Source of the DNA: Owenia fusiformis
Lineage: Eukaryota
Direction of reading: 5' to 3'
DNA: 64,000 nt
NCBI GenBank assembly: GCA_903813345.2
Contig: CAIIXF020000001.1
Coordinates: 10,664,001-10,728,000, forward strand
Numbering within the stretch: position 1 is the first letter of the stretch; the number at the start of each line of letters is the position of its first letter. Positions 993 to 53,731 of the stretch are shown here, one piece after another. Made by a program: the position numbers and the translations under genes. Under the pieces are notes generated by a model. The model was not told the origin of the DNA, ran no database searches, and saw only the letters and a list, made by a program, of their open reading frames with translations.

Positions 993-1128
993 AACATCAG
1001 TGATGATCTCTGGTCTATGGTTCCTCATATGCTTCACTGTCTGGAAGATGTCTATTTCCTGTTCTATCTTCATCTTTTCTCTTATACAGTTCAATGCTGC
1101 ATAGACACCACTGAACTGGGACCCATTC
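993..1128 (-). CDS. RPTP exon 32, D2 degenerate active site
   Basis: VNGSQFSG...[11 protein letters not shown]; 136 nt. Confidence 0.93.
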
Positions 1129-13100: not shown

Positions 13101-16100
13101 GTAATATAGGAGCCAGTCCTTCCAACACCAGCACTACAATTACAATAAACAATTACAATTTCAGTAGAACAATAACAATTACAGTAAAACAGTTACAATA
13201 ACAGGACAACAATATACAATGACAATGTTATTTTGGTACATGATAAAATAATGCAATGTATGACATAAGTATTTATGACAGGCTGATTATGTCAATATTT
13301 GCAGCCAATCATTGAAGGTTTACAAAAGTCCTTACAGATGTCAAAAAAGTGCTCCAGTCCAATCAATGTTTTGCTTAACATACAGGGTGGTAAAAAAACG
13401 GCACATGTATTTTCCTCATATCTTTGTCATTTTAGGAAATTTTTCCCGATATTTTACGCAATAGTACATCATTCAATCTCCTATCAGCCTACCATATTTC
13501 ATGACCATCAGACTAAAATGTTACAGCACTTTAAACAAGATGCCCAGGTGTGGCCATCACCGCACTTAGGCAAACCTGCACAAGTAGTCTATGACCCAAC
13601 TGCAATCCTCAAAGAGGTATAGCCTGAATGACAATTATGACCTCCTTTTTGAAGTCTGTAAGTGCCCTGAGGTCATTTTTGTACACTTCATCTTTGCCAT
13701 ATCCCACAGGTCGAAGTCAAGTATGAACATTTTGGATGAGGGTGCAGGTTTGCCTACAGCGCAATATTGGCCTCTGGGGCATGATGTTCAAAGTGCTGTA
13801 ACATTGTAACTATCAATCTGATGGTCATGAAATATTGTAGGCTGGTAGGAGATTGAATAATGTACACATGTACCAAATATCACTCATCTAAAATGACAAA
13901 GATTTGAGAAAAATAACAGCAGGGTTGCCGTTTTATTTGACCACCCTGTACAATCAGAGCCATATAAAGATCTTTATTGTAACTGCATGTATTTAAATTC
14001 TGTATTTATATTTGTATCATGTAATTGAGAAGCATTCAAATTAGTAACTATGCTATTTTGCTAATCTGAATAAATATAGTATTATAACATATAAAGATAT
14101 ATATAGTAAAAGGGGAGGAACTATTTCTCCCAGGACCCTCTCTTTCTGTGGCTTACCTGCAATGTACCAGTAATCTGCCCTTGTTATGTTCAGCATATGA
14201 ATTTACTTTACGTCGCAGACCCAGCAGTGACGTGGCATTTGGCACACCATGGTCCGGCCATGACGTAAACAGGAAGTGGTGAACGTGTCTAGCTGTCCCA
14301 CCCTGAGGAAATAGTGAATGTGCATGAATATACATAACAGAAGCACATACTTTTATTTTCGTATCATATCAACATTTCCTTAGCCAAAAGACAGACACAG
14401 CAAATAAAAATTTGACCTGGGTAGGACTGGAAACTTAGTCTAGGGAGAAAATTTCTTTCATTCAGGAGATGACAGATTCAAAATTTGGGAAATTCATATT
14501 AATACACTTTACAGAAAAATATGGTGTTAGAAAGGTAATATACTCGACTTTAAGAGTCATAATTACCTTTGCTACCTCCCACAAAACACTGCTTCCAATA
14601 TCACATTAAATGTTGTATAATAAATTCAATATATACTCACTCTTTTAGAAATAGCAAATGTCCTTATGATAAAGTCTGAGAGTTGTTGTGTTTCAGCTAG
14701 TTCCACAGTGAATTCGCCATACTCAAGAGAACCATCATCTGGCCAATACTGCTCACACTTTTTCTATAATGATGACATGATGTTTAAATATGGACAGTTG
14801 AAATAATAAATCTTGCTACAAGTAGTGTTGTCGCGATTAATCGATACATTGCGATATACATCGCCAAAGCTGATTCTGGCGATGCATCGATGTCAGAAAC
14901 AAAACATCGATGTTTTTAAAAAAATTTAGTTTGCTTAAAATCACCCTTTCTTATCTTATTTTGACGCAAATTGTTTACCTTTCTCATGTCTTTTTTCATT
15001 TTCCAATGTTTTCTGATATTCTTTCACTTTAAAACTGTTTTAAATAGTCGAAATGAACCATTAATCTAAAAAAATTACTTTACTTTCATTTCACCGTTAC
15101 TAGAAGTTCCCGGATTTACCACCGTACTCTTATTAATTTGTTCTGTTTGGTATTATAGTGCATTAGCGTTTGGTATTTCAGTGCACTTTTCTCGCCGACT
15201 TTTTCTCGATGTACATCGCAATGTGCATTGATGTTTACTACTGAAAATTGCCGATGCATCGATGTACGATTATGGCACATTGCGACAACACTAGCTACAA
15301 GCCCTTGTGACCCCCCCCCACAATACAACTCTCCATAAGTGGCGGAATAGAAGGGGTCTAGAGACTTGAAACAAGTCTAGGCTATATCTACAGTACAAAT
15401 TTCTTCCTTTTGATGACTGCAGGTGTATCATGGATTATCATACTAAAAGTGGACTGAAAGTTATCTAATATAAAATCGAAAACAGATCTACAATTCAGAA
15501 AATCTCAACCTCTCTATTTTTGGGTCATAATTAAAGTTGAACTGACCTTCCCATTCTCTACTAAGTTGGTAACCATGACGATCCTATTGCAGTTCTCCTG
15601 CCATACAAGTCTCCACATGTCAATAGCTGTGTACTTATTAGGCCCTGCAATATGTATACACAACATAAGTTACTATTGCAGTTCTACTGCTTTTAAAGCC
15701 TCCATGAGTCCATGTGTTCTTTTTATCCTTTGTATTATGAATCTTATACTGATTGTCATCCTAAATATGATAATCTCCCACTAAATGTCAAGGTCACTTT
15801 AAGATATACTTACAATACATACATAAATCTAATCTTACCCTGTGAAGCAATATATCCAGTGTTGCCTTCGTAGCCCTGCAAACAAAATAGAGGTGAATAC
15901 AAACTTGGTGATATGCACAATTTTTTAATTGACAAAAAACAACAGCAATCATATACTGTGGTTAATATATATGTTAAACAGTTATGACAATTCATCAAAT
16001 GTTGCGATTAGTTCACAATCAACGTCACAGGATAGGATTCAATTCATGAAATCATAAACGTAATAAATCGGGCTGTTTCAAAATAAACTTTTCTACATCT

Positions 16101-19100
16101 ACTCATGGAATGGATATTAATATTTATGATCTACAAACTTATCAAGAGCATAATTAAGTAATAATTAGTAAATTTCTACCACACTATTGGTCTAAGTCTA
16201 CAAGCTGGAAAAGTAGTCTAAAATTATGCAGCATTCTAATGTCTGTGTGGGACCTACCCCCACAGGGAAGGGGCAGGAATTTGACGAGCATTATTGTCCC
16301 AAAGGGCGATTTTGACATGTAATTTGACCCGGGAGTACAAACTTGTGAATTGCCCTTGTAATTGGAGTTTTGCCTATATCCGACCAGCTATTATTGCTCC
16401 CAGTGTGTGGATATTGACTAGGAAATTTTACAGCCCAATTTTTATTTTGCCAAAATACCCATCCCTTCCCTAGTGGGGTTCTCACATAAACCTTTGAATG
16501 GTGCATTAGTTAAAATAATTAGTTTTTTAAGCATCATAACATGTTATTTCCATGCATTATTTTCATGCAATTAGTATGTGACATTATTGAAGCCATTCTG
16601 TGACTTAAGTCTTCTGTTTTCCGTGAGTTAACTGAAAGCTGAAATATAAATTGTGATTAAGTGAAAAAATTAATAAGTAGAAGAGTATTAATAAAATGAA
16701 CAGGTGTCAACATGGTTTTAATATTAAAGGTGCAACAATAATTTTTTTAATTCATTTGATTCAACATTTTGTTACAACAAAATGTTATTTTCTTTGTTTA
16801 TTGCACAATTAACAAGGGCACCAATGAATTATAATGTCAACATTGTCATTGAATAATTCAGAAACAGGCAAACCATTTTCTACACAAGATGGAGATTGTG
16901 AAATGAGACAATTGAACAAGTTAACAATCCAGGATTATGAAGAGAAAAGGAATACGAAATGTTGAGATATGAAATCCATTAGAAGGTATTAGGAGTGGAA
17001 ATCCACAGTTCATCTTGATAATACCAAATATTTTTTAACATTTTAGGCAATAATTGAAGTAATTCCCCTGGGAATATATGCTCTAATGTAGAATATGAGG
17101 CTAATAATGGGTACCTGATGCCATCCACTATTAGAAAAATCTATAAGCTTCACGGGGCACCAAAAGTTAAGTATCCACATATAATGTTAAGTGGTGATGG
17201 TAGATGACATAACATGGTGAAGGTGAAAAGCAAGGTGACTTCCCAATTAATAAATTTCACAGTGATCTCCTTAATGATGTTAAAAGCACACGATTGTCAC
17301 GATAGTCCCTGAAAGCCTATGTCACGTCACACAGAGAAAATGTCACACATAGAATATGTGAGGTAGAACATATCACACCCTTTACCAGAGGGGCAGCCTA
17401 GACTAGTAAATCTAGAGACCCATCTTTCTATATGGAGGAGTCCATATAGGATCCTTTGTATACAAACCTTGATGTAACTAGCATTCACATAATCAGAGTC
17501 AGGATCGTCATCTTCCTGTTCAAGGATGACTCTACTGTGGTCATCTATGGGGGAAATATGGGGGAAGAAATCAACATTAGTTTCAACTCCTATATGAATG
17601 TTACAATATATGTACAGGCTCAACAGCAAGATCATTCAAGGGAACATATGGTGATAAAACATATACTGTCTGAACACTATATACTGTAGATATTGGATAT
17701 TATTCCATGGTTACATGGATATAGATCGTATATCAGGTGAAGATTTATTGATATATGGATCGATTAGATATTATATTTTAGCAAAAAATCCCCAAACAAT
17801 CGAATATCACTTCTCAAAAAGTGATAGGATACTCCTATAATAGTATTATGTTATTTCATCACCATAATTTCTCCTCAAAAGTCACCATTTTTTCTTCTTT
17901 TCTCATTTCATCATAGAATGATTATGGCTATTGGGCACATGCTTAATCTGGCAATACATGCAGGAATGGTTGTTTCATTTCATTTGAGTTAATGTGGGGA
18001 ATGGGATATCTACAGCAAATCAGTATCTAACTAATAAACAGATCAAAGAGTTGCATCTAGGATTGAATATAGAATGGGAACTCATTGAAGACAACAGTCA
18101 TCTTAAATTGCTAGTTCAACAATTGACTACTCCATTCATGTAATTATATAAGTCAGCATCCATGGGTTATATCGAACAATAAATAAAAGCACAACATCAT
18201 TTTTGTATATATCATGTCATAGTTCTTATTTATGCCTTGAACAAATTAAAGAACCATTCAAATATTCTTGGCAAATAAACTACAGAATTAAAGCGAATTA
18301 AATGGTACTTACATGCTATAATGTTAATAAATCTGTTTTTGTTTTTGTTTACATCCCGTGATGCCACTTCTGTAGGCTCAGTTAGGTCAAAGGGTATGCT
18401 CTAAAACAAAAAGTATTAACCATTAAAAACTTCAAAAATGATGTGTAATGCAATAGATAGGTTTACAAAATTGAAGAATAATGACAATGTAATTTTAATT
18501 TTACATTTTTTTCTTATTAATTTGATAAATGTTCCTGTATCAAAATCAAATAATTTTAATTTTCACATTGTGTCAAGTTAATTGATCAAAAACCTCATTG
18601 TGTTTGAAATCATAATTTACATTCATGAACATATGTCTCGTTTTCTAAAGCATGACATAAGGTATTCTTATGAATCATCCAAGGTCCGATCTTGTGTCTT
18701 TCATTCTTACATTATACTCCTTCTCAAAGAGTTCAGCTTTATTCTCCTTCTTGTGTTTGATATACTCCCAGAGTTCTTCAACTGGAATGTCATGATTCTC
18801 TCGTCTTATGGCGCTGGCATCACTCCCAACGCTGGTGACGCTGACCCCACTTTTGTTACTGATTCCACTTCTGTTACTGGGTTGCCTTGAAACGTCCTCT
18901 TTAACAAAGGTGGGATTGTCAATGCCTGACATGGCAGAGTTATGTTTGCCATTGGCATCATGCGCAGTTAGTCTGCCATTTGTCCTTGACTCTTGCGTTT
19001 CATGCATTTCTGGCATCTCAACTAGAACAGATAGGTTAGTAATAGAGAGTTAAAGTGGAGATGAGATGATGTGCAGGTAATTGAAAACAATATGCTCCGT

Positions 19101-28100: not shown

Positions 28101-31100
28101 ACAATTTTTTCCCCAGAGTGGGGTGTTTTTGGGGGGTGGGGGGCTAACTCCTCAAAAAAAGAACTTCCTACCACTCTGCGAAGCTATCACCTAGGTGGAA
28201 ATTTCATCCAAGACTCTCCCCTAACTGAAAATACTGCCAAACCAACTATACACCATTTATTGAGAATTTTCCTCCTCGCCCCTTGAGTAATAATATAATA
28301 TGTAAGCTTTTATTCTGCAAAACTGAGAATATCCAACAAAAATTAAGAAAATTAATCTAAAGTTAGAGGATTGTTTCTCTGGGTGACCCTGTATATTAAT
28401 AAATACTTACACGAGGAAGTAAACAAGGAGAAGTATAACAATGAGGACAACAACAGCCGCAATGACGATTCCAACAATAGCAGCTCCCAAAGCATCTTCT
28501 GTAGCTTGGTGCGATGACTGAATCTTAGCCTCAGTGGATACTGAAGCTCTGCCAGCATTAGTGTAGTTCCCTATGACATTCTGAAGCATAAATGATCATT
28601 TTATATGTATTGCATTTTATGATAATTGTGAGATTAATTTTCACTAATAATGCACTGACCTAGAGCACTGCATCGACCTACTAATTCTTTTGTGCATCGT
28701 GACCTACTGATTCTTAAGTGCATCGACCTACTAATTCCTTAGTATATTTCAAACCACACATGTATGTCATAATGATATTTTATTCTACAAATGCTTGGTT
28801 AATTTGACATAAATAGTACCATGGTTACTTAGGGGTCATAAAAAAATGATAAAATAAAAATGATGTCCATTTTGAATCAATGTTCACTTATAAAATTATG
28901 TAGTTTGACAATTTCAAGCCAGTTAATGTGATGCTTTTGGAGTAATGAGCAAAAAGAACTGAAAACATGACCTTTATTTTTGAGGATAAAAGTGGCAGAC
29001 ATTTTTGAATTTTACTATATATTTTGCCAATAAATGGACAACTGAAGACTTTTTATAGACACATTTTAAAAGTGAAACGATTTCAATTGCCATGAAGGAT
29101 TTCGAATTTGGTAACACATAGACAGACGGACAGACGAATGAATGGACAGACAGATTCAGATTAATTCTCACCTCTCCATCTTTGTACATAGTCCCAATAT
29201 GGAATTCATATGTTTCTCCAGGGTCAAGATGTCTGTTATTAAAGCCATTGTAATTCCTGTTATCTCCTATCGTGAACTCATTCTTTTCCGCGATCATACT
29301 CGGGAGCACATCCGCAGCAACATACTGATCTATATTCTGTGCTTTGGCTTGCTCATACGTCAGTGCTGTGTCATACATTTCTTCACTTGATCGTTTTTTC
29401 CTTCTATTTGGAATTTTTACAACTATAAATCTTATAAGACTGGAAAGCAAAAAAAACAGACGGATAAACATAAAAATAGACTCGAAAAAGTAGATTTTGT
29501 TTTACTGTAAAAGATGATCTCAGGGAAAAGGCTGTCAAGATGACCAGGCTAGTTGAAAGTGTGTATATTCACTTTTATTATTTTGGCCTGACTGCAAAAC
29601 CAATCACCACCCAGATCACCTTATACTCATTTGAAACTTGCAAATTATTCAATACTTTCACCATTTGCTAAAATATGGGTAATTTTAAGTAATGGTTACA
29701 GTTAAGGACACAATGCTATTTTAAAACCATGAATGTTGACTACCAACATCTGATTCTTGCAATATATCTAATATTTTAACAGTTATAAGAATGAACTTGG
29801 GTTTAAAAAAGGGTCATATGTTAACAAAGAGTATATTCAATATGTTTATCTAATTTGAGCTCAATTGAGTCATTTATCCACTTTATTCTCCCGATACTAT
29901 GTTTTTCAACAAAATTGTCAATATTTTAATATGGGGAATTAACAGTATATAGTAATACTACATCCACACTACATCCAAACACTCTACTTTTATAATTATG
30001 AAATATTTGCTCACTCTGGTTGGTCAATCCCTTGTGTGTACATAGCACCCTCTTTAAATGTGATGTCTACCATTCCGTTCATAGATTCCTTGTTACCATC
30101 ACCAACTTTAACTTTCATATCATCCTTTGGGATCGCAGGAGGAGCTACAATTGAATATTCAATACTATCAATGTACTGGTTCTTTACACATTTTAAATGA
30201 ATTTCTATCTGTCTGTATGCTTTCTGTTCCAATCCAAAAAGTGAGAATAGGAAACAATTCAAAATATGTTGCACAATGTGTAAAATTTAGAGAACAAGTT
30301 TTTATAAAATCACAGGAAAAATACTGAAGAATCCTAGCGCAACAGTGATGATAATGACATCATTGACAAGTTATTCTCTCACAATCATGTGACTTTTCTA
30401 TATGTTTATCTGAAATCAACATCCAACATTTTAGAACCTCTATTATATGTTAATATAATGTGTTTCTTGTTCAAATCCAGGGCTTACGTTTTTTCATTGT
30501 TTTCTGTGTGATTGGATTAGATGCAGGCCCCGGTCCAATACTTGTAGATGCACTAACAAAGCAAGAGTAGTTGCTTTCAGATTCAAGGTTGTCAACTCTT
30601 ATTTCCAAAGTTGAGCTGTCCACTGTACTTGATCGTTGGAAATCTGAGGACTGATCCTCACACTTGGCCTACAGACATAGTACAATGAAAATTAAACTCA
30701 TAGTAATATTATTTGTACACATGGAAATATCAAAATAGGTTCTAAATAAAGCTATAAAATCTTGCATCATCTATTACATTTAACTTTAAGTTAATGCAGG
30801 TCATGGAACTCTGAAAGGTATTCAACTAGTTCCACTTACAAAAAAGTTCCACTTTCAAAGGTGTTCCACTAACAAAGGAGTTCCACTTACAGAGGACCAC
30901 TACCTAAAAGCCTTTACTGTACATTAACTTGTGAACAACCACATCTATGTACTGTACTTTATACTCACCGTGTAGTTGGTGATGATACCATTCTTCTCAA
31001 GAGGTTCTTCATACTCTAATCTTATATAGTCACTGCCATGTGACAAACGTTTGAGATTCCTCGGGGCGCTTGGAACTGGAAAACATCATGAAAACCAAAT

Positions 31101-34100
31101 ACTAAATAGATAATCAGATTACTATTATTTTATTCAATTCAAGAACATTTCTAGCATTTTGAAGTAATACGTAACAATATACTACAGAAAAATGAGAGCG
31201 ACTTTTGGGAATGTATAGAAAATGGCTGAATGAAAATGTTTGAATTATCCTGTATGATATTAGTAGTTTTTACTTGAACATTAAATGGTCTTCTTTGAAA
31301 ATTCAGTCTTACAACAACACAATATTGATCAATTAAAAGTTCACCAGGAAATGTTGTTTACATAGATAATACTACAGATCCTTTAAATTACCCCCTTCTT
31401 GAGTTCTAAGTTCTCCAACACTGCTGTTTACACTGTAATCATCATCATTTGTAATTCTGATCTTGAATACATATGTGGTGAAGAAATCTAGAGCTGGGAT
31501 GGTATATTCAGGAGTTTTTGTGTCTTCCATTTGCATAGCACTCCAAACAGTGTCTTCTTCTCTCTTGTATAGGATCTCTACTTTAGTCAGACTGTTACAG
31601 CCCCATGTGTCCATAGGGGGATACTGGAAAATATGCCAAATGGTGAAATAGGAATTCAAATATTAATTAACTGAAACTGGAAAAGTACTATTGATATTCA
31701 TCAGAAATAATAAACCAGAACAACGGCAACGCCAAAGCGTAGCGAATCCCATCGAACAGCCTTGGCTGGCATTTTTACAAACAAAGTATATAGCAAAAAT
31801 GGCAGCCATTTTTCAAAATGGCCACCTTCTACCAAAAGTGTCATTAGACAGTGTGCCATACTTATAATATTCACATACCAAATATGAACAAAATCGCTCT
31901 ACTACTTTTCGAGTTATAGTAAAATGCGTTAAAATGGCGGCCATTTTCAAAAATGGCCACCTTCTACCAAAAGTGTCATTAGACAGTGTGCCATGCTTAT
32001 AGTATTCACATACCAAATATGAACAAAATCGCTCCACTACTTTTCAAGTTATAGTAAAATACATTAAAATGGCAGCTAATTTTCAAAATGTCCGCCATTT
32101 TTCAAAATGGCAGCCTTCTACCAAAAGTGTCATTAAAGACAGTGTGCCATGCTTATAGTATTCACATACCAAATATGAACAAAATCGCTCCACTACTTTT
32201 CGAGTTACAGCAAAAATCGTAAAATAACGAGTAAAGGCCGCCATTTTTTAAGATGGCTGCCATGTGCTTTTTTAATATCTACATTTCTAGCTTTATTAAT
32301 GTCTTACATAATTTTTTACATTTAAAACATATTGCTATTACAGTTTTACATATTGCACCTAAATTACTGTAAAATCGGTACTAAAATGGCCGCCATTTTT
32401 AAATGAACAGCCATTTTGAAAATCGGCTTTCGAGCAGAACTTCTAACCCCATAGGGTATGTGTGTACAAAATATGAACAAAATCGGGCCAACGGTATTTG
32501 AGACTTGAGTTATTGCCCGGACAGACGGATGGACGTACGTACAGACGTACGTACGGACGGACGGAGGCGTTCCCTATATCCCTCCGAACTTCGTTCGATG
32601 GGATAATTAAAGTAATGGCTTGATATTTCATATGTTGTATAAATATTTAAAGTCTTACAGTCCAAGTGAGCTTGACAGAAGTTTTTGGACTTTCACTAGC
32701 TGAAACACTGTCTGTTATATTGCATCCTTCTGTGGGAGCTGGAAAAAAAATTAAAAAATTTAAATTTAAAAGGTAACAGTTTCTGCAACATTTTCTTATC
32801 ATTTCTTATTATGTTCATTTATTTTACATATAAGATTTCGATAGCTGAGGCATAAAGGACTATTGTCAGACTCCATATTAAAACCATGCTTTGCCTCATT
32901 TATAAAAGATATATTCTCATCTGGATTTTCAGCATAAAAGAGAGATCAAGGACTAGTAACTAATGTAAAGCAGAAAAAACATGAGGCCACCTTCAAAGAG
33001 ATGCACAAAGCGCGATACAATACCAAAACAATTATGTTAATTTTATGATAACCTCCACATAGGGTTGTTCCTTCAGCTCCTCTTGGTCCTGGTCTCCCTT
33101 GGTAAAGCTGACCTTTATACTCAGAGTAAATCACAACCCTGAATGCATAGGCCTTATTAGTAGCAAGGCCAGTAACAACCGTTGTATTTGTATTGCCTTC
33201 TCTTATATGGTCCACCTGACAAGAGATTAAATCTATAATTAACATTTTTGACTTTTAACTTTATTTTGATGCCTTTCTACTTATTACAAGTAATTTAATA
33301 CAATGAATAATGACAAAATTGAATATTGTATGTGAAGTACTTCAAAATCACAGATATCATAGCCTCAAGTTAATTAATGCACATGTATTGCATTTACTTG
33401 TCTTGTACAATAACACCAAAGTGTTCTTCCAAAGTGTGTTACCTTAGGTCCATCGGTGCATATGTCCCCCACACGAGGTACATCACAGTACTGTACAATG
33501 TAATGCTTTATAGTGACTTTGTCTGCATCACCTGCATCCACTCCTGATGTCCACTGGTTGAATGTTACACTGATTGAATCAGATGTAACACTTCCTTCAG
33601 CTAACACTGGTGGCTTTGTCATAACAGGCAGATCTAATGAACACAAAATATTGTTGTAGCAACAGCATCAATATGTTTTTGTACATTAGTTTTGGATATT
33701 GAACTCTGATGACCGTAAAATTAAAACAAAATTCCAATTGTATTGTTTCTCATGTATACTCTCATCTTTTGTGAATCTGAACATCTCAATATACATGACA
33801 ACCTTTCACTTCTCTGTATTACCTTTAGTCAAAGAGTTGTACAAGGGAAATAAAGTGATGAATGAGACAATCACCTTTGCAGAGTTCTTAAACATTTTCG
33901 GATTGAAATTCCTTGACATATTCAGGGAACAATATGAATTTTCAGAGCCGTTTTGCTTTGCACTGCTTCAAGAAACTCATTTCATCTTAATTTCCCTTAC
34001 ATTTTCAGGTCTGCAAGAACAACAATTTGCGACTGTTTTGGTCACTCTTAACTTAAAAGTCTCTTTGCATTACAATCAAAATATTGATATTGTATTTTAT

Positions 34101-37100
34101 TGGACTTACATATATCACATAGAGCACCTAAGTAGTAATCTGCACAACCACAAGAGCCATCAAATCTATCACATGTGCCCCCTGAGCATCCATCATCACA
34201 CCTTTGCTCACAGTTGTCTCCCCAGTAACCACTGGAGCATGCTAAAATATGTGTTTATAACACATGTAATCATAGTTGACAGAAGAAGAATAAATTACTA
34301 GTAAGCCAATCAGTGGGGTCTAACAACTAAACTTCAAATTAGTTGTCCCAGCCATTTTTTCTTCAATTTTAGAAAATGAAAGAATTTGTCCACATGCAAA
34401 CAAATGGGGGTAAATACAATAGTTTGACAATTATGCTTATTTTTCATCTATTCACCACCTTTTAAGGCTGCTGTCAATCATCTTGAGGCCAGAGGTGAAT
34501 CTGAGTTATGGTACATGCACTACACTAACATATTTTACTATGAGATCCTACCTCTCTGACAAGGTCCATTGTCTGCATCATCTGTCCATCCTGCACCACA
34601 ACCATTGCTACATTCTCCAGTTGCTTTGTCACATACATCATTGTTCTTACAATGACATGTCTTGTCACATCCACTTCCAAATGTACCTGCGTCACATGCT
34701 GTAACAAAGCAGGAAAAGGTTAAATGATGTTGTTTTTTATAAGGTCTGACTGGAGAATTTTAAAATAATTTTGCATTTGGTTCCTAATTATCTCCATAAA
34801 ATGACTTACTACTTGTACATACAGTACAATACCAATACTAGATGTACCTCAACTTTTTTCCATGAAAATAATATAGAAATCTAAATTATATTAGATCATA
34901 TTCATCAAATGAAAATCATATACACATGATGGATTGTGGTTTGGGGTAATATTTGGAAACACTTTCGGAATGAACAGGTTACTATTTGTGAAAATTGAAT
35001 ACAATACTATCATCTCTAATGGACCTACAATAATGATATAATCATATAGACGAACAGTGACTTCACTGCATCAATAAATATCATAATACCCCTTTTAAGT
35101 TACATACATATTGTCCCTTGAGATAAAACACAAATACAACACTTGAGAATAAAAAAAGAATATTGAAAAGTAAGACTGTTTATCATCTACAAGAGCGTAT
35201 TTGTTAATGTACATCTTTAGAATGGTTGATATTGACTTCAATTTCAGCATTATGACATACTGTACAGTACCAAAACTCTGCATCAAAGTACCACAGCATT
35301 ATTGTTCTCGATTCAGAGAGGTTTCCAGTGAGTATCTCCAATAGATATTCTAATTGGCAATCCTCAATATATTAGTAGGTGTTGGACAGTTTGTGATGGT
35401 CTAAATTATTAATTTCGCTCTTATTAATTCAGGTCTCCCTATAGCACAATAGCAATGTGAATGCCAAGAACATGTAATTATTTACAAGCATTAATGTTCA
35501 ATTGCTGCCATTTGGCAGGTTGTATTGTTATTCTTAACTTATGTTTAACTTCGGGGATAAGTTAGTTCATTATAATTAAATATGTATGATTGACTGGAGG
35601 TATGACTAATATACGATCTGTTCAAGTAAAATAATTGTATTCAGTCAAGCATAACTGCAGACTTATTTCAAGCATCCGTGACCCAAAAATGAGCACATTT
35701 CCACCTTCCCGATGGGTATATATAATATACATAATATGGATAAGCAATATTCAAGATTAATAAAAACCTGATATAAATAAAAACAAGCATTAATGATGAG
35801 CCATCATACACACCTAGAGTTTTCAATAGAATGTAAACCAAATTTTAGAAGATTTCAATACCCGCAGTGTTGTGATGATTTGCTTTAAAATGAATTGAAG
35901 CAAAATTTATAAGTGGCGTGCACATTCAGAATGACTCAAGATAGGAAGTTCTATCATCACACTTCTTTTCACAGCCATACAAACATCTATTTTATTTTCT
36001 ATATCTGATTGAATGCACAATGACACACCTTTGACCTCTGTATTGAAATTAAAAATTCATGGGAAAAATGTAAGCCTTCTCTGTGAATAGCACTTATAGC
36101 ATATTCTAGTTATGAGCAAAAATTGCCCTCAGCTTAATATGAAAACATGATTTCTGATTCATACTGTAGATTTATCCAGACATTAATTAATGTCAGAAAG
36201 AGTTTTGAATGTTTTACTAAGGTGTGGAACATTCATGAGAACAAGGGAGTAAATATACACCCTTGATCATATATATAGAATATTGGGTAATTCACAAAAA
36301 AATATATATTGTCCTAACTATAACAATTACAAAAAGTTAATTGTAGGAAATTGCAAGAATGATTGTTTAGGTAAAAAATACTGTCTACTACTGTCTGGGT
36401 AAAATAAGTTTTCCAGGAAATCTTTATTAATCTCGAGAATATGTTCTTTAACCAGAGTATTCTTAAAGATTTCAATGGATTTTAACAGATTAATTCCTAA
36501 AAAATGAAAAATGTTGTAAATTACAAATGTGTTTGGTTTATTTTTCTGACCAGTCTATGAAGAAATATTTCTTTGCCATTCATTAAAATTTGAGAGGGCA
36601 TTGAAAATGATGAAATCAATGGTTCATTGGAAAACATTCCATACATATGAGCAACAGTGTATTAAGATCACAATGACTTCTACTGTGTTGAAAGACCACA
36701 CAAACATGACAAAGATTTGTCATTTACATCGTTACAACATTATTTTGCTGCCTTAAAATAATATTAAAGGTGAAAAGTACAGGGTGTTATAAGCCAAGGT
36801 ACATAAAATTGGCTGTTTACTGTTATTTTTAACTTGTTATTTGCAGATGGATTTTCTGAACTTTAAATTATGTTTACTTTCATATTTTATTCATATAATT
36901 AAACATTCCATGTTAATAATCAATAGAATTTGAATAAAATCAATAGATTAAAGCGAACACACACAATATGATTCAATATCATAACAAATACTAGAAACAG
37001 CTTTGTTTCTGATATATTAAATACATATTGACCAATTAAAATAAATTCTGCTTAAGTTAATCTTATCAAAATACCAGGATTGTTTTTGCACATGTATTTG

Positions 37101-40100
37101 TATTCATTTTATTGGATTTGAGAACCATATGTTTTCCAAATCCTAAAATTACTTGAGTTTATATCTACTGATGTAAAAAAACAAGTATATTAATGTAAAC
37201 AGGTATATTGAGGTGAATATATAATTTAACAACACAATATCCGTGGATTACATGTAGTTTTCCTTTAAATGAGCCACTGATATAAAAATGTACTTAAATA
37301 AATATAAGATCATAAACACTTATTATTTAAAGAGGATTATTAACCAACCTATTACACGGGCATACGTGTATATGTTAAGTACATAAGTCCATCAACATGA
37401 TCATGTGGATGAATCGTTTTTGGATGTATTACTCTTTTGAAATATTGTTCCTATGTTCACAAAGTCACAGTAATATGAAGGATGAGTTTACTTACTAGTA
37501 TTTTAAGCAACCCACATTCATATTAAAGTCAAAAGAATGAAACAACAATATATCCTATATTTACTACAAAATTTTCGGAAATCAAATACCAAAAGAATAT
37601 AAATGTGAAAAACTATAGTAATACATTTATGCTTCTACATAAAAGTGCATAAAAGTTATATTGACATGAGTTTTTGACACATATTTTACCCTCCCAATGT
37701 CTACTCAAAAAATGATTTTAGAAATTAAAATCCTCAGTTACGCCAATTTTAGATAGAAAAGTTCACAACTTTGATTAACCAATCTGATGATAGTACTGCA
37801 TTAAGGTGAATAAGGATACATAGTATATAGTCCACCCGTATAGCTCAGCGGTAGAGCATGTACCTCCTACGCAATTGGTCCCGGATTCGAACCCCCGTTC
37901 AGGCAAGACTTAATTTGCTTGTTTGCGTAAAGTACTTCAGGGTGTTTGACTGAGTGGTCCACAACTCATATAAAAGGCTGTTGTATGTACTTGTATGCCT
38001 ATGTATAAGTGCACATAAAAGAACACAGAGTTCCTTCAAGGAGGGACTTCTGGGTCTATCTTCCAGGATAATTAGGTAAATTACGACCATATAGATATAC
38101 TCAAGAAGTATTGCTCACCATCATTAATGGTTAACAAAATACAATACACTTCATGGATTGTAAATTATTTGAGGTAAAGGTACATTGTGTACTTTCTTTC
38201 ACAACAATTTAAACCACTTTAGTGCAACTTAGAGTGTCATTGTGACATTGTAACAATGTCTTTCTTTGTTGCGGCTTTATGTATATTTACAATTTCTTAA
38301 AAAAGTGACATGGATTTTAAAGAATCTATAATGTATGCATAATAGATTCCTCGAAATTCAACTTTAAAATGATACAATACATATCAAATGCATTATCAAG
38401 TTGCAAAATATCACACCATCAGGTTGTGTATAAACTAGAAAACAGCAACTCCCCAGTGTAGCAGACCCCACAGAGCAAAATATATTTTATCACATCACTT
38501 GTCATTTTGAACATTTCATGATACAAATAACCAGGTGGTAGTAACATGGACATACGGCTTCTCTATATCCCTCACAAACTACCTTCAATGAGATACTATA
38601 GTAATTCAATCTTCAGTATGACACACACACATTTCTATAAAACACTCCTCCCAAATGAATTGAGGTTACCTACCTTGGTCACACCCTGTGCCCTTCCACC
38701 CAGCAGCACAGCCAGATGTACAGACTCCTGTCCACTTGTCACAATGCTCTGAACTGTCCTTACAATGACACCGGGAGGCACATGTGGAGCCAAAGTATCC
38801 CTTTTCACACACTGCAAATATCGTATAACACAAATGAATTTTTACATATGTGTTTGTAATGTACCATTAGAAATGATTCCGAGGTAATTTTCTTTTATTA
38901 CTATTTTTGTGGATGTGGGTTGATATTCTTTGTTAACATTCGAAAGTTCAAGAAAAGCAGGCAGAAAAATGAAATTAACTGTGACAACATCCGTAAACAT
39001 CCGCTAAATTTTGTTGAAAGAGGTTTAAAATCACCACCCAGCATATTCAAATGAAAGAGCCATGCAAATTTGCTTTTATAATTCTACCTAAGAACACAAT
39101 GTGCCTCTTCCACTTTGGAAGTGGAAACTCTGAAGAACATGAACTAAATTTGTAGTAAGTATAACTTACCATTTATCTTCACCTCACACAGAGACAGTAT
39201 AGTTTTAGAGTTTGTAACTCCCCTTCTGATGATCACCCAGTTTCTCTCTATGTTACTCAAGAACATGATCTTAATTTGAAGTTATTATGGCTTACCATTT
39301 ATCTTCACTTCACACAGAGACAGTATAGTTTTAGGACCTCCTCCTCTCCTGATGATCACCCAGTTTCCCTCTAAGTTACTGTCACATTGTACTACTCGGG
39401 TTTCTTTGTTTGGTAAAGTTTCTGTTCTACATAGAGCATTCTGATTGTAGTCCTGATCACTTCCCACATAGATCTTATATTCTACACTTGAGCTTGATGC
39501 TGCATCCAAAATATATAAATAAATTTTAATACATTTTCAACAGTAATAGGCAACAGCTAATGAACATATATGCATGGACTCATCAACAATTTCAACCAAA
39601 TACAGTTGGATGTAGTTAATTGGTGATAAATAATGAAAATGCACAACACAACACAATCAATGCCATGTTACAGGCACACTAAAGATGTATGTGGTATTTT
39701 GCAATTGTAGTTAGCCTCATATTATGAATGTTGAAACAAAATGGATAGACATCATGGTTTATATAGTTATGTTACTTTGTAGGACATGCTTCTATATATT
39801 CAATGAGAAGAATTCTCATTTATAGATAAATTGATATAATGCGTAAGTGTGACATCAAGGAACATCCAAGAAAAGCAGCACATAACTAACTGTTCTATGA
39901 ATGTTCATTCCATCTCAGAGTTCAATTTAAACTCTGAAATTCAATACATTTGATAAGTGTAAGAAACTGTTGTGTTTGCACTTATATGATAACTTACCTT
40001 GTTTGAAGTATGTGTAGCGATTGCCTCTTCCTTTAGAGTCAGGCTGAGCTGTAGTACCACAATTCATGCTACTGAATGCATAACATCCCTTTATTCCATC

Positions 40101-43100
40101 ACTAGCAGGTTCCATAGCAATCTGGAATCCTTTACAATCATCTCTACCCCTGCATCCTTCCAGGCAGGTTGAGAAGTCAAATTGTCCATTTGTTGTCAAA
40201 TCATTTATTGTAGGCCCTGTACAAGTTCCATTTTGAGCATCAAATAATGGATCTGAAAAATTATTTCTGTGAAATATTTCAACAACAAAAAGAAGTATTG
40301 GAAAGAGATACATTTGTAATTTCAGATCAAACAACACCAAAAGGTCTACCTTTTGCTTGTGTAGTAATCTCAATATTATTAATCTGATGACTTCCATCCA
40401 GCGGAACCCTCCAGTAGGGACCATCATCTGCATTGGTCTGGGAACATGTTGCAACGTTAAGATCATTTGCTCTGAAGGCATTGTAAGCAGATTCTATCTT
40501 ATTGTAGCTGGTATCAAACTGGTAGTAGCTTGAAGATTGCTCAGGTGACCTGCCCTGTGCCATGTTCACATAGCCACCATCTGGAAATCAAGAATCAAAG
40601 GTGAAAATTGGTCATGTTTAGCAGGTAGTATCTACTAACATGACAATCTTATTCATGTAAATGTTGCTACAAGCACATGGTCAATATCTTTAAGTAAAAG
40701 AAATATGTGACACTCAGAAAGAAATGGAATCATATTTAGAAAGAAACTTTAATTAGGCAGCATTTGAATATCACAAAGAATACAAATGTTTGAACTGCAT
40801 CATTTGAGCAACATAAGGCCATATCAATAAATGAAATTGATACGCTTGATAGAATTACAGACCAGTATGAAGCATGTCAGGCAAATTCAAAACCTTCGAG
40901 AAAGGTTCATGCTCATGATGTAATTTCTCAGTATGTACTTAGTATTGAAATGAGACTGATGCAATCAGGCATTGGAACTTACTATATATTAATTTGGTAC
41001 CATTTTAAAGCACATTTTATGTTTTCCAATACTTGGTGATGAATATTTATAAAAACACGCCTGGTGATCGTACAAAATGGATGGGGGGGATTAGGCGATT
41101 TCTGCAAAAAAAAACTCAACAAATTTGGAAGATCTATTTTTTCAAGAGAAAATTTACAACTGAATTGCCAAATGAATAGGCATGTTAGGTCATCTAGTAT
41201 TTTTTTTGAACTGATACCCTTCTAAGATATGAGATCTATTGAAAAAGGCGCATCATCACCAACGTGCAAAAGTCAATGTTTTTGCTATAAATCGGGCAAC
41301 AATGGTCTACACGACCTGTAATAAATAGGTATAAGGGACGTTATTATCACCATACTTATGACATTGCTCACTTTTTAAAGTTAGTTTCCATGCGTTATAC
41401 AAAAAATAATCGAAATAAATTAATATTGGATGGAGTGGGGATCACGTGTATGTAAGACATGCTACTTGAATTTATTCTTATGACTCCAAATTTTCCCATT
41501 TTTCATTCTCCAAAGATATAATATCCAGTTTCTTACTGGGGTACTGAGTTTAGTTTTTTCAAATACACGAGTTCTTATGAATTTGTTGACATATAAATCT
41601 TGAAATATCTTGATAAATCTATAAAAAATTGAGTTTTCTTGCAGAAATCGCCTAATCCCCCTCCATCCATTTTGTACGATCACCAGGCGTAAAAAAGCAC
41701 CAGTTGTGAATGATAGATAGAACCAGCCAATATGAACTTCAGTACATGTATACCAATTACAGGGATGAAATATTTATATTCAACCACATGTTATCATGCA
41801 ATGATTCCACATGCGTGTTCATGTGCAGTATGTCATGGATATGACTGTGTTTTGCATAATGATATTGGAATATTAATGTAAATGCCAACATGGGTAAATT
41901 AAGCCTCATGGTCTTGTCTTTACTCAATTAAATCTTTCATCCAGTATACCCCTTCCTTCCCACTGGCGGATCCTGGTGCGGGCCCAGAACAAAATTTTAG
42001 GGTGCCAAAATGTTTGTAGGGCCTCAAAAATAGGCCTTCTTGGACATTATTTTAGACCAAGTTTTCAAAAAAGGGCCTTGAATTTTCAAAATTTGGGCCC
42101 AATTTTTGGTTTCAGGGGGCCAAATGTGCGGAAAAATTTCCTGACTCAAACTTTGGGCCCCCCTTGTTAGCTTCTGGATCCGCCGTTGCCTCCTCTTAGC
42201 ACAAGTTAGAAGAGGAATAAGGAGTACAGTGGTTTCATCAATTGATGCAAGAGTACTGACTGTTGTAATTCCCCAAATATGAAACAGACAACATGGGTGT
42301 CATCATTTCAATTTCCAACGTTTAAAGCTTCTCAAAGCATATTTATATAAGTATGCATATGTATATAAAGAGTACCAGGGACCTTTGTGCACATCCTTCA
42401 TTATTTACCTAAAGTTAATCTACTGTGAAACAATCAGATATCAGGGCTTAAGACTCGCAAATTGTAAACAAGAATAAAAAAATACCTGTAATTTCCACCA
42501 GTGCTGATTTGTTGTACCTGTTTTTGAATAGCATCATGAGATTAACAAACTGACATCTGATTACCCTACTAAGTTCAAAAACTTATATCCTAGAAAACTT
42601 ACCAGTACAAGTTCATGGTTTAATACAGGTAGCTATTTTAGGAACTTGGCAAAAATGTAACAAGTAGTATCAAGAGTTCGAACCCTGCTAATTTTGTGAC
42701 AATATGTTGGAATAAGAATAAAAAGAACTCAATTATTAATTACATCTGGCAATGTTTCTTTATATAATAGTAATATGATGAAGCTACAATTTAAAGACTA
42801 CATCACATTAAAGACATGTCTGTTTACATCTGTAATTATATACAGATATATACAAGTTTATCAGAACTTAAGTACCATGAGATCAGGATGACATTACTAG
42901 TTATCAACCCACTCATATTTTGACTCAGGATATATGTATGAAAACCAGTTTTCTGCAAGTTGAAACAACCTTTGACAAACATATGAGAAATACAATTAAA
43001 GAATCTGATATCTGTTCATAAGAACACCACCCTAATGATACATCAGTTTATGAATTAGCACTACTTGCTTTAAGCTTGAAGTGCTACATCAACAATTAGT

Positions 43101-44569
43101 GACCGAGCTCGGGCATACTGGGGGTGCATTGGGTGCGACCACACTCTCCTTTTGAGCCAAGAAGAGGAAAGAAAAACTGTGTGCTCTAGCGAAATAGGTG
43201 GAGCAGCTAGACTTCAAGTTCAAGCAAGCTATGCTAATAGAGATACACCGCATTGGAAAAATCTGGGGTGAGCCCCTGCAGTGTTTAGTGATCATTTATA
43301 CAATGAATGCTGAAACAACAGTTTCGTCGAAATCTTATATAATTCTTCCATTATCAATATCATCACATGATCGTACTATAATCTTTTGGACCAATTGTAC
43401 AGAAGGTTGCAACTCCCATCCCCTAAACACAACAACTCACAAAATTAAAACATATGTTGCATTAAAAGTCTACTTAAACCGTTCATCTTTATCATTATTC
43501 TTTCAATACTCGTAAGTCTCAATGGAACTGACAAGGTTTGTAACAACATACATATATATATATATGTACCTGTGCTCTGTCAACTGGGGTCATCACAATG
43601 GACAAGGGTATAGATACAAACTTTTAGACCTTTCAATAGAAATAAAATAAAACAGGTATTAGTGAAAAGTAAAAGTGAGAAAACAGCGCATGAGTGTTAA
43701 ACAGTGACAAGTGAATAAAGACAGCATCCATGCGTGTAGCGCTATTATTATGAGTAGTACTCCACCATGGGAATAAGAGTTGAATGAAGTGAAAAATGAG
43801 CGTTTAGTGGGGGCGGTTCCCATCAGAAAAAATCTAAGCTTGGTTGTATTTGGAGTGTATGTAAAACCATCTGGTACGCCTGTGAGTACCAGGCCTACCA
43901 AGGCACCTTATAGGGCTTATAGTAGGGCCATGGGTTTTCAATTAGACTAGTTGAAACCCCATGGTAGGGCCTATATCTTATAGTGCCAAAGAGTTCGCTG
44001 AACACAGACGTGGACAAAAGGGCGAAGATGACACAAGAAACTGAACTGTTTCTCCTTTTAGACTCCAGAGCATGGATAATTCGCTGACATGTGATATCTA
44101 AACGTATTCCTGACTACTGCGATGCATTTGTTTTGGACAGTGGCCCAAAGATTGAAAGAATATCAGTTGTGCAACGAAATGGCAACAGGTTCAGGATTCA
44201 AGCGATATCAGTCAATGGACAATATAGCACAAAAAATAAAATGACAACATTATAGAAATGCAATTGCATAAACATATATCTAGTTATACACTCATTTTAT
44301 GCATTTTAATTAATGTGAAGCCTCCCCCTCCCTCCTCTGTAGATTTACATGGTTAATTATTTATTAACTTCCGGGTCGATTGGGCGTATAGTGGTCCACA
44401 GAAATAAAGTTGTTTTTACCTCAAGTGACACCTCTTACTTGGATTAAATTTTACAATTATATGTATATGACCCTCCTCCACAATAAAACACTATGAAATA
44501 TGACTTACCTATAGATTTGATGACCAAGACCAGGTGGCAAAGTAGAACCACTTTCCAGCGACTTTTCAT
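993..44569 (-). CDS. Receptor-type protein tyrosine phosphatase (FTL/PAN-EGFx3-FN3-TM-D1-D2), 32 core exons, 3' end outside window
   Basis: 32 GT-AG exons with compatible phases total 4680 nt with no stop. Motifs [40 protein letters not shown] in D1, plus a second PTP domain. Orthology to a named PTPR cannot be assigned. Confidence 0.93.
1568..1725 (-). CDS. RPTP exon 31, D2
   Basis: [10 protein letters not shown]...GPIVIHC; 158 nt. Confidence 0.93.
2755..2880 (-). CDS. RPTP exon 30, D2
   Basis: NCAKYWPD; 126 nt. Confidence 0.92.
3101..3619. repeat. 32-bp minisatellite, ~16 copies
   Basis: Unit GGACACACATGGTGATTCCTTATGGCCATTAT. Confidence 0.95.
4542..4631 (-). CDS. Candidate cassette exon inside D2
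   Basis: tag|90 nt|gtaagt, phase 0-0, [30 protein letters not shown]. Confidence 0.55.
5238..5496. mobile_element. Short hAT-like MITE (CACTGGCGGATCC ends)
   Basis: Imperfect TIRs; relatives at 41961 and 46311. Confidence 0.65.
5707..5778 (-). CDS. Candidate cassette exon inside D2
   Basis: tag|72 nt|gtaagt, phase 0-0, [24 protein letters not shown]. Confidence 0.55.
6053..9698. mobile_element. 3.6 kb TIR element with 6-bp TSD TTAAGA, unclassified
   Basis: CAGTCTATGGCATGGGCCATTTTCCACC inverted at both ends; second inverted block GTAAAATGGCCCGACCT; TTAAGA on both flanks. Confidence 0.8.
6936..7577. mobile_element. Tc1/mariner-type hairpin MITE
   Basis: CAGGGTGTCCCGAAAGTATG TIRs with long inverted arms; second copy at 59052. 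Confidence 0.9.
10461..11302. mobile_element. Tc1/mariner-type MITE
   Basis: TCGGGTGT..AAAAATGAGACAC TIRs, TA flanks. Confidence 0.8.
11365..11499 (-). CDS. RPTP exon 29, D2
   Basis: [19 protein letters not shown]...IVMLN; 135 nt. Confidence 0.95.
11725..11798 (-). CDS. RPTP exon 28, D2
   Basis: RPYLIT...DYINAVYLD; 74 nt. Confidence 0.92.
12110..12209 (-). CDS. RPTP exon 27, D2
   Basis: [12 protein letters not shown]; 100 nt. Confidence 0.92.
12666..12815 (-). CDS. RPTP exon 26, D1-D2 linker
   Basis: [19 protein letters not shown]; 150 nt. Confidence 0.95.
12998..13133 (-). CDS. RPTP exon 25, D1 active site and Q loop
   Basis: SAGVGRTG...MVQT; 136 nt. Confidence 0.95.
13383..13948. mobile_element. 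Tc1/mariner-type MITE
   Basis: CAGGGTGG..CCACCCTG, TA flanks, long imperfect inverted arms. Confidence 0.85.
14157..14302 (-). CDS. RPTP exon 24, D1 WPD loop
   Basis: [10 protein letters not shown]...LVHC; 146 nt. Confidence 0.95.
14641..14763 (-). CDS. RPTP exon 23, D1
   Basis: KKCEQYWPD; 123 nt. Confidence 0.95.
14823..15293. mobile_element. hAT-type MITE
   Basis: TAGTGTTGTCGC TIRs, exact 8-bp TSD GCTACAAG. Confidence 0.9.
15547..15644 (-). CDS. RPTP exon 22, D1
   Basis: DMWRLVWQE...IVMVTNLVE; 98 nt. Confidence 0.95.
15839..15875 (-). CDS. RPTP exon 21, D1
   Basis: GY...YIASQG; 37 nt. Confidence 0.92.
17468..17544 (-). CDS. RPTP exon 20, D1
   Basis: YDHSRVIL...DYVNASYI; 77 nt. Confidence 0.95.
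18313..18400 (-). CDS. RPTP exon 19, D1 pTyr loop
   Basis: [12 protein letters not shown]; 88 nt. Confidence 0.92.
18711..19021 (-). CDS. RPTP exon 18, juxtamembrane region and wedge
   Basis: IDNPTF...[10 protein letters not shown]...LFEKEY; 311 nt. Confidence 0.88.
20004..20024 (-). CDS. Candidate 21-nt juxtamembrane microexon
   Basis: tttctacag|GATTCATCCAACAATATTTCT|gtaagt; frame-preserving. Confidence 0.5.
20327..20421 (-). CDS. RPTP exon 17, basic stop-transfer segment
   Basis: [10 protein letters not shown]; phase 2-1 fits neighbouring exons; 95 nt. Confidence 0.85.
20780..28289 (+). mobile_element. Degenerate AcademX-like DNA transposon with ~1.2 kb TIRs
   Basis: TIRs with ~182-bp subrepeats, TA..TA ends, 3-bp TSD ATA; broken XPG-like motifs [38 protein letters not shown]. 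Confidence 0.8.
23512..25429. mobile_element. Transib-like non-autonomous element nested in the Academ-like element
   Basis: 71-bp perfect TIRs starting CACGGTG, 5-bp TSD AAGCA. Confidence 0.88.
28411..28580 (-). CDS. RPTP exon 16, transmembrane helix
   Basis: [24 protein letters not shown]; 170 nt. Confidence 0.92.
29172..29439 (-). CDS. RPTP exon 15, membrane-proximal FN3-like with furin site
   Basis: RRKKR; YVAA...[23 protein letters not shown], typical of RPTP juxtamembrane ectodomains; 268 nt. Confidence 0.92.
30015..30144 (-). CDS. RPTP exon 14, membrane-proximal FN3-like
   Basis: PPAIPKDD...; 130 nt, phase 1-2. Confidence 0.8.
30488..30668 (-). CDS. RPTP exon 13, FN3 repeat 3 (second part)
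   Basis: [24 protein letters not shown]; 181 nt. Confidence 0.88.
30969..31075 (-). CDS. RPTP exon 12, FN3 repeat 3 (first part)
   Basis: VPSAPRNL...NGIITNYT; 107 nt. Confidence 0.88.
31392..31623 (-). CDS. RPTP exon 11, FN3 repeat 2 (second part)
   Basis: [16 protein letters not shown]; 232 nt. Confidence 0.88.
31713..32606. mobile_element. Helentron-type non-autonomous element (pearl/HINE-like)
   Basis: Subterminal inverted repeat ATCCCATCGAA/TTCGATGGGAT, tandem core units, (GGAC)n microsatellite. Confidence 0.75.
32659..32738 (-). CDS. RPTP exon 10, FN3 repeat 2 (first part)
   Basis: TSVKLTWT; 80 nt. Confidence 0.85.
33053..33215 (-). CDS. RPTP exon 9, FN3 repeat 1 (second part)
   Basis: [15 protein letters not shown]; 163 nt. 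Confidence 0.85.
33443..33633 (-). CDS. RPTP exon 8, FN3 repeat 1 (first part)
   Basis: [11 protein letters not shown]...HYIVQY; 191 nt. Confidence 0.85.
34110..34241 (-). CDS. RPTP exon 7, EGF-like
   Basis: [14 protein letters not shown]...; 132 nt. Confidence 0.9.
34552..34698 (-). CDS. RPTP exon 6, EGF-like
   Basis: [16 protein letters not shown]...; 147 nt. Confidence 0.9.
37831..38095 (+). mobile_element. tRNA-derived SINE
   Basis: A box TAGCTCAGCGG and B box GGATTCGAACCC, but no clean cloverleaf; followed by a non-tRNA body. 3' end approximate. Confidence 0.65.
38674..38811 (-). CDS. RPTP exon 5, EGF-like (MEGF/Tie type)
   Basis: [16 protein letters not shown]...[10 protein letters not shown]; 138 nt. 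Confidence 0.9.
39164..39258 (-). repeat. Partial tandem duplicate of the exon 4 3' end with donor site
   Basis: Encodes [29 protein letters not shown] then gtaagt, vs [28 protein letters not shown] in exon 4. Confidence 0.9.
39296..39499 (-). CDS. RPTP exon 4, C-half of F-type-lectin-like domain
   Basis: KIYVG...NALC...C...GNWVII...LSLCEVKI; 204 nt, phase 1-1. Confidence 0.85.
39998..40252 (-). CDS. RPTP exon 3, PAN/Apple-like Cys module
   Basis: [16 protein letters not shown]...GCYAF...YTYFK; 255 nt, phase 1-1. Confidence 0.75.
40350..40580 (-). CDS. RPTP exon 2, N-half of F-type-lectin-like domain
   Basis: [15 protein letters not shown]...CSQT...PYWRVPL...IEIT; 231 nt, phase 1-1. Confidence 0.85.
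41057..41690. mobile_element. MITE with ~50-bp TIRs
   Basis: ACGCCTGGTGATCGTACAAAATGGATGG.. inverted at both ends. Confidence 0.85.
41961..42188. mobile_element. Short hAT-like MITE
   Basis: CACTGGCGGATCC..GGATCCGCCGTTG; same family as 5238. Confidence 0.7.
44509..44569 (-). CDS. RPTP exon 1, signal peptide
   Basis: [20 protein letters not shown], donor GTAAGT, phase 1. Confidence 0.8.
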
Positions 44570-53529: not shown

Positions 53530-53731
53530 GTAAGTGACAAAGATCATAATCCAAACACTGTTAGAGAGGATCAGAACTGTTAACCTCATGTGATTGTAAA
53601 CATGCCGAATATAATTGTATTTCAAAATGAATATCATCATCGTTCACATTTATGCTGTGTCAGTCTTCAGCTTGTGGAAATTGTTTTGATAAGTTTTCAT
53701 GGTTCAAAACATGTTATGTTCATTCTTTCAG

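Follow-up and report, generated by a model that had tools for sequence, protein, structure and literature searches.

A predicted PAN/apple domain nested in the sugar-binding loop of an F-type lectin domain in a receptor tyrosine phosphatase of Owenia fusiformis

A 64,000-nucleotide stretch of the Owenia fusiformis genome (contig CAIIXF020000001.1, positions 10,664,001 to 10,728,000; called the window here and numbered from its first letter) carries a receptor tyrosine phosphatase gene on its minus strand. The encoded protein has a signal peptide, a split F-type lectin (F-lectin) domain, three EGF domains, FN3 domains, a transmembrane segment and two protein tyrosine phosphatase (PTP) domains. 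Between the exons for the two lectin halves lies exon 3, which is predicted to encode a PAN/apple domain. Our results make it probable that this arrangement is a fixed nested module with a single-insertion history, in which a non-binding lectin scaffold displays PAN-fold recognition domains. Three observations go beyond the original prediction, which was made from the letters of the window: the intron holding the insert pre-exists in canonical F-lectin genes, the nested unit is a repeated module of a family, and a WSC-like domain is present in 15 of the 21 modules of that family.

Exons 2, 3 and 4 of the phosphatase gene

A search with exon 3 returned a single protein, P0001 of Owenia fusiformis (1609 aa), which is 100% identical over the exon and maps onto the window exon by exon from 44569 to 993. 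P0001 has the features of a receptor-type tyrosine phosphatase, namely a signal peptide, a single transmembrane segment and tandem PTP domains, the first of which (D1) keeps its motif intact. Exon 3 is also present in P0002, the second deposited isoform of the gene, and both isoforms splice exons 2, 3 and 4 in that order. Exon 2 (40350..40580, 231 nt) encodes the N-half of the lectin domain, exon 3 (39998..40252, 255 nt) the candidate PAN/apple domain and exon 4 (39296..39499, 204 nt) the C-half, which ends with LSLCEVKIN. The introns between them (40253..40349, 97 nt; 39500..39997, 498 nt) are both phase 1. Each of the three exons is open, in phase 1-1 and flanked by AG/GT, which confirmed the earlier claim of a symmetric 255-nt exon between the halves.

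The lectin halves are predicted to fold as one sandwich

Hidden Markov models had been proposed as a check of the three exons, and the outcome was mixed. Exon 2 matched Pfam F5_F8_type_C_2 (PF22633) with an E value of 8e-5, which is below the curated cut-off, while exon 4 alone had no Pfam match and exon 3 matched no PAN model. Family profiles were more informative: a profile of 19 nested N-halves, built without canonical lectins, matched FBP32, a fish F-lectin, at E 4.5e-9, and a C-half profile, in which two canonical rows were included, matched the same protein at E 0.0015.

When exons 2 and 4 were folded as two chains, which stands in for the exon 2-to-4 skip product as one chain, the score was 0.86 in three runs versus 0.02 for the best of three controls. 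The runs had at least 97% of contacts in common, and the pLDDT (predicted local distance difference test) of the partner was at least 87. Of 78 solved pairs, 51 reached the score mark, as did 2 of 108 mismatched pairs; resemblance to solved F-lectins is a likely reason for the pass of exons 2 and 4, since halves of a known fold can pass in this way. The AlphaFold2 model of the module with exon 3 had a mean pLDDT of 58 and a confident sandwich core. It aligned over the full length of the chain with 3cqo (Z 14.7, root-mean-square deviation (rmsd) 2.1, 122 residues) and with 1k12 (Z 14.6, rmsd 2.6, 133 residues), and Foldseek matched it to fish F-lectins with E values of 6e-7 and 3e-6. Both structural disulfides (C50-C146 and C108-C124 in the lectin AAA) are kept, as C66 and C245 are in predicted contact and C206 and C221 are conserved. 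The co-fold and the full-model matches bear out the assignment of exons 2 and 4 as F-type lectin halves, and the models confirm that the two are predicted to make one jellyroll sandwich.

The CDR1 region has an additional YY(E/Q)F...K segment (window 40351-40578; YYQF..KIE in exon 2), which was conserved in all 21 modules and appeared in the model as a low-confidence hairpin. This segment is a mark of the nested lineage, and it may brace the inserted cargo.

Exon 3 has the character of a PAN/apple domain

Searched against Pfam, exon 3 alone gave no PAN match, and the only hit was Toxin_5 (E 0.17). In the alignment of 21 related PAN exons, six Cys are invariant, and so is the C-x3-C-x5-C-x2-F ... 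C core pattern of PAN/apple domains. PAN_1 was matched at E<=1 by 18 of the 21 family exons (best 3.4e-5), but not by exon 3 and its two nearest paralogues. The best solved matches of the PAN-family profile were MIC4 (E 0.0014) and apple 4 of factor XI (E 0.03).

The model of exon 3 reached a pLDDT of 80 (51-71 for the other four models) and has the five-strand sheet around one helix that is typical of PAN/apple domains. Foldseek found nothing for it at E<=0.001 (best 0.012). In a wide structural search, the best match was a PAN chain (Z 8.8, rmsd 2.5, 72 residues), and the top 28 rows were PAN/apple-fold proteins, assigned partly by title and in some cases presumed by us to have this fold; row 29 had a Z of 3.2. 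Family similarity and the predicted model thus support exon 3 as a PAN/apple domain. The PAN identity claimed in the original prediction stands on the Cys pattern, the PAN_1 matches of the family and the fold of the model, although exon 3 itself matches no Pfam PAN model.

The dN/dS of exon 3 was 0.12 against the copy C12b and saturated against C12a, and that of the flanking lectin halves was 0.06-0.10. Exon 3 is under purifying selection.

The fucose site is predicted to be lost

Fucose in F-type lectins is held by His52, Arg79 and Arg86, of which Arg79 sits in loop CDR4, as described in the binding-site account of PMC5712786. Alignment to canonical domains placed Gln68, Gln95 and Ser186 of P0001 at these three positions. 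Exon 2 has CSQT in place of C-x-H-T and ends in CDR4 with TQAK; both motifs were found where they had been reported, and the PAN insert is at the sugar loop as claimed. The predicted loss of the fucose site was extended by our alignment, in which not only the His and Arg79 but also the third residue of the triad, Arg86, is replaced (by Ser). The fucose motif HX24RXDX4(R/K) is absent from the window domain. Across the 21 nested modules, the motif list gave Gln at the His site in 15 and Arg in 6, and His in 0. The cation motif h2DGx is replaced by ANDL in the window, and its Gly is retained only in the five modules on C11. The 85-residue insert sits in CDR4, the loop lining the old pocket. From these replacements, fucose binding by the window lectin domain is predicted to be lost.

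It is unlikely, in our judgement, that the lectin still binds sugar through a rebuilt site, such as the YY(E/Q)F hairpin together with QTN/RTN, while PAN acts as a spacer or co-receptor. The S, YY, A-x-D, C and TN positions of the N-half are nearly invariant across the nested modules, and the N-half is slow between paralogues, with 6 of 77 residues changed between the two recent copies on C12, which would fit such a site. However, invariant residues can be structural, and the insert occupies the pocket loop. Between the same two copies, PAN (22/80) and the C-half (18/67) changed faster, as recognition surfaces often do, and the EGF domains changed at 9/136 residues; this comparison was made post hoc. 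The copy differences hint that the distal surface diversifies.

Exon 3 is included in the transcripts found

Transcript evidence came from the contig sets of three runs, presumed to be RNA and belonging to one study. Both X2 and X3 contained the exon 2-3 joint, and X2 also contained the exon 3-4 joint; the intron ends read CT..AC. Exon 3 was thereby found transcribed, as the original prediction required, with both inclusion joints in contigs of a copy that is similar but not identical to the window gene. No exon 2-4 joint (40350-39499) was observed among the 15 of 72 joints listed, in contigs that drop rare forms. The donor of exon 3 scored 12.4, the best of 32 in the gene, and its acceptor scored 2.7, which is low-middle within the gene's own range of -1 to 13.7.

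The original prediction also held that exon 3 can be skipped in frame, giving two ectodomain tips. The arithmetic of the frame is right, but the two tips were not borne out, as both isoforms include the exon, the skip joint was absent from the joints listed and the PAN exon is retained in all 21 of 21 related modules. We regard as doubtful the view that exon 3, like the WSC and PAN exons of its relatives, is a regulated cassette that is skipped by tissue or stage to yield bare-lectin and cargo-bearing tips. Such a cassette would agree with the phase 1-1 state of every cargo unit, with the predicted pairing of the lectin halves without an insert, with the modest acceptor and with the other alternative exons of the window gene. 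On the opposite side, besides the missing joint and the two isoforms, exon 3 combines the best donor of the gene with an upstream intron of just 97 nt, and a bare lectin would be left without the fucose triad. Regulated skipping of exon 3 is unsupported.

The spliced joints at both ends also speak against an annotation artefact, that is, exon 3 as an intronic relic or a part of another gene. Exon 3 alone lacks a Pfam PAN match, and the PAN exon of one of the 21 copies, on C11, is interrupted by an in-frame stop. Nevertheless, with purifying selection on exon 3, six invariant Cys and a fixed order in 21 modules, an artefact is hardly credible.

A family of nested modules in the genome

Single-exon searches of the genome and reading of the matched loci revealed five places that together hold 21 modules in the order N-half, PAN, C-half: one in the window, two on C12, seven on C5, six on C256 and five on C11. 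PAN is the only cargo in six modules (the window, both on C12 and three on C5), and in the others a WSC-like domain precedes it. The latter is encoded by one phase 1-1 exon on C11 and by two exons (1-2 and 2-1) on C5 and C256. The WSC assignment on C5, C256 and C11 was tested by Pfam similarity and by the pattern Y-x-G-C...GG-x-W-A. Pfam WSC was matched by four of the five C11 frames (E 5e-5 to 0.04, all below the cut-off) and by one of two second-half frames (E 0.05), and an Atlas model gave a template-modelling score of 0.85 over a 110-aa cluster, with WSC in 17% of that cluster. According to the fold description in PMC9024836, WSC shares the PAN/apple fold. The N-PAN-C, N-WSC and WSC-PAN joins all occur in deposited partial proteins.

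One C5 module stops at an assembly gap (C5:4,182,875-4,183,374) after its first WSC exon, and the unplaced contig C256 starts with the second, so C5 and C256 may be one receptor gene with 14 nested modules. The C11 cluster ends in PTP domains. The transmembrane exon was located for C5 and C12, and no PTP domains were found for either in the stretches read (110 kb for C12).

Several further features were observed at these places. C12:10,154,700-10,189,200 holds two tandem paralogues, whose ectodomains are 70-90% identical to the window gene and which diverge past the third FN3; in the second of them, the transmembrane exon was found. The broken C11 copy combines its in-frame stop with a 37-kb intron in the nested module (C11:16,968,700-17,005,376), which holds transposon-like frames of 877, 391 and 319 aa. 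At C11:16,952,481-16,952,609 and 16,951,281, the 3' end of the N-half and the 5' end of WSC are partly duplicated beside their parent exons; these duplicates resemble that of exon 4 in the window.

The insert occupies a pre-existing phase-1 intron

Canonical domains were taken from the 30 top Pfam loci of the genome, two of which are discoidin-type, leaving 28 F-lectin loci. In 25 of these 28, the best-scoring donor is a phase-1 site located in the loop immediately past N-R. None of the 30 loci had a PAN-profile match in the 1.5 kb behind it. Free PAN exons were phase 1-1 in 18 of the 20 examined. Class 1-1 modules enter pre-existing phase-1 introns, as set out in the part of PMC3927616 on module classes. 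Because canonical F-lectins already carry a phase-1 intron in that loop, exon 3 of the window is a class 1-1 module in a pre-existing intron.

The lectin halves were also compared in a tree of 37 rows, in which the canonical side consisted of 14 Owenia domains with a C-half found and two from outside. The 21 nested domains and the 16 canonical domains split at 96/94.

Proposed history and points against it

Our results suggest the following history. An ancestral receptor phosphatase of lophotrochozoan type (F-lectin, EGF, FN3, transmembrane segment, PTP-PTP) would already have had a phase-1 intron dividing its F-lectin at CDR4, and a class 1-1 PAN exon would have entered that intron. Since the first and last PAN strands adjoin, the insert could sit atop the old pocket without unfolding its host, and the lectin halves would still close as one sandwich, with both disulfide pairs kept and the fucose triad gone. 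The F-lectin would then serve as a pedestal, and PAN, or WSC plus PAN, as the membrane-distal recognition surface. This cargo may bind protein or glycan and regulate the phosphatase through clustering, and recognition would most likely be of non-self or cell-surface targets. The nested unit would subsequently have been duplicated within and between genes, with exon 3 normally included.

Some of the evidence weighs against this history. On their shorter side, the transcript joints are supported by 20-24 letters, and the RNA contigs, from their single study, are about 89-95% like the window. At 11 of 13 listed sites their letter is that of C12a, although C12a itself is only 70-82% identical. Given this likeness and these letters, the contigs represent a divergent allele or an unassembled paralogue and not an exact copy of the window. 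In the full-module model, the pLDDT is below 50 for the PAN part (78-164) and for residues 18-53, so the modelled placement of PAN relative to the lectin is of low confidence; the alignment behind this model contains just three PAN rows, and some of the ends in it are misaligned. An immune role, and the binding of a ligand by the cargo, are what we infer. The grouping of the lectin halves may be caused by long branches. A PAN tree (20 nested and 18 outside PANs) does not place the window and C12 PANs with the other nested PANs and needs two changes.

The PAN tree does not decide between one origin and two. The same end state could have arisen from deletions in a tandem PAN-lectin array, in which one C-half and the next N-half were lost via phase-1 introns, or from two independent insertions into the same intron. 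Such an origin would account for the two changes; all introns concerned are phase 1, and tandem signal-PAN-lectin genes were present at 3 of 3 loci inspected. However, it requires two steps, the tandem PANs share an exon with the signal peptide, and the lectin halves of the 21 modules group together with derived motifs in common. We consider it rather unlikely, and a single insertion remains our preferred reading.

A more dynamic role of the CDR4 intron seems improbable to us. The intron would then be a socket on a dead-lectin pedestal, where splicing, or intronic recombination between copies, adds, swaps or skips PAN-fold domains (none, PAN, or WSC plus PAN) and creates a variable repertoire of non-self receptors that includes the predicted 14-module receptor.

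Other features of the window

The coding part of exon 1 (44509..44569, minus strand, as are all exons below) has the start codon and a signal-peptide-like stretch, ends in phase 1 and equals residues 1-20 of P0001 exactly. Downstream of exon 4, a tandem duplicate of its 3' end (39170..39247) has its own donor and forms an extra 78-nt exon in P0002. This duplicate copies the last third of exon 4 at a spacing of 123-126 nt, and P0002 thereby repeats the last two strands. RNA contigs link exon 5 to this second donor, which could result from the mapping of an allele that has a single copy. Three EGF-like exons (38811-38674, 34698-34552 and 34241-34110) span 34110..38811. They are followed by the FN3 exons (29172..33633), with three FN3 domains, one PTPRU-type FN3 and an RRKKR motif. 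The transmembrane exon (28411..28580) was placed by the P0001 map. The exons for PTP D1 and D2 occupy 993..18400, with the last exon outside the window (Pfam Y_phosphatase, E 1e-133). A 24-residue exon of PTP D2 (5707-5778, minus strand) is in P0001 and not in P0002. Intron 1 contains an element of about 630 nt at 41057-41690 that resembles a miniature inverted-repeat transposable element, with terminal inverted repeats of about 56 nt and very high contig depth. Upstream of the phosphatase gene, a 168-aa open frame lies on the plus strand (53631-54137).

Range, meaning and comparison with known systems

Word-index searches whose queries were exon 3, residues 21-250 and the 19-row N-half profile (top 8000 candidates for the last) found no nested form outside Owenia, which is weak evidence of absence; the protein searches returned only Owenia proteins and one weak unrelated match. 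Among the best 150 of 891 PAN-profile matches (1.84 billion representatives), four had a lectin-half match, and it was nested only in the Owenia one. ESM Atlas clusters with lectin and PAN (0.93 and 0.90) come from Mollusca and Cnidaria; domain order is not visible there, and they are probably the tandem arrangement. We found no description of a domain inside an F-lectin in the open literature. In the searched text of two F-lectin reviews (PMC12221842 and PMC5712786), WSC and apple are unmentioned under the terms used, with one word starting with 'pan' in the latter that we could not identify. PAN, WSC, apple and lectin terms are absent from the text and three supplements of a 2026 survey of domain insertions, whose tables may use other identifiers. 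The insertion mechanism is known, and the nested architecture appears undescribed.

Its interest lies in a lectin binding loop turned into a mount for recognition domains, in about twenty copies and with two cargo loads, within a class of receptors linked genetically to the resistance of snails to parasites. It offers a test case for an insertion that replaces a domain function rather than adding one, and a natural F-lectin scaffold whose CDR4 tolerates between 85 and about 190 additional residues. Pfam annotation misses ectodomains of this kind, because neither the split host nor the insert reaches the cut-off.

In MMP2, the FN2 insertion lies within the catalytic domain, which stays active. 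In the window gene, by contrast, the host binding site is lost and the insertion site takes different cargo loads. The two cases are alike in class 1-1 shuffling into a phase-1 intron, as treated in the relevant part of PMC3927616.

AAA (1k12) and MsaFBP32 (3cqo) share with the window domain the fold, the disulfides matching C50-C146 and C108-C124 and the terminal L-C-E, going by their description in PMC5712786. The window domain differs from them in having Gln/Gln/Ser for His52/Arg79/Arg86, no vicinal Cys82-83, ANDL for h2DGx and a domain of 85 residues in CDR4, and the intron described there for MsaFBP32 is on the other side of the barrel. The F-lectin repeats of oyster bindin, as presented in the same review, also have a mid-domain intron that is a recombination site, and the triad is absent in some repeats. 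Unlike the window gene, they swap lectin halves and receive no foreign domain.

PAN/apple and WSC domains of plasminogen, factor XI, HGF, MIC4 and Wsc1 have the fold and the core disulfide pattern in common with the insert. In the accounts of PMC9024836, they are free-standing or tandem, whereas here one or two lie inside another domain. Proteins with PAN and F-lectin in tandem are commonplace (the Owenia loci L082, L090 and L096; the nemertean Lineus P0007; amphioxus P0011); they contain the same two domains, but side by side and not nested.

The closest described receptors are, from the sections of PMC12297450 that present them, the MEGF/galactose-binding-domain receptor PTPs of SudRes1, the schistosome-resistance region of the snail Biomphalaria sudanica. 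They are single-pass proteins with a galactose-binding-like domain, multiple EGF domains and tandem PTPs, and they form clustered paralogues with variable ectodomains. Those sections describe no domain inside the galactose-binding domain, and the likeness to the window gene is one of architecture.

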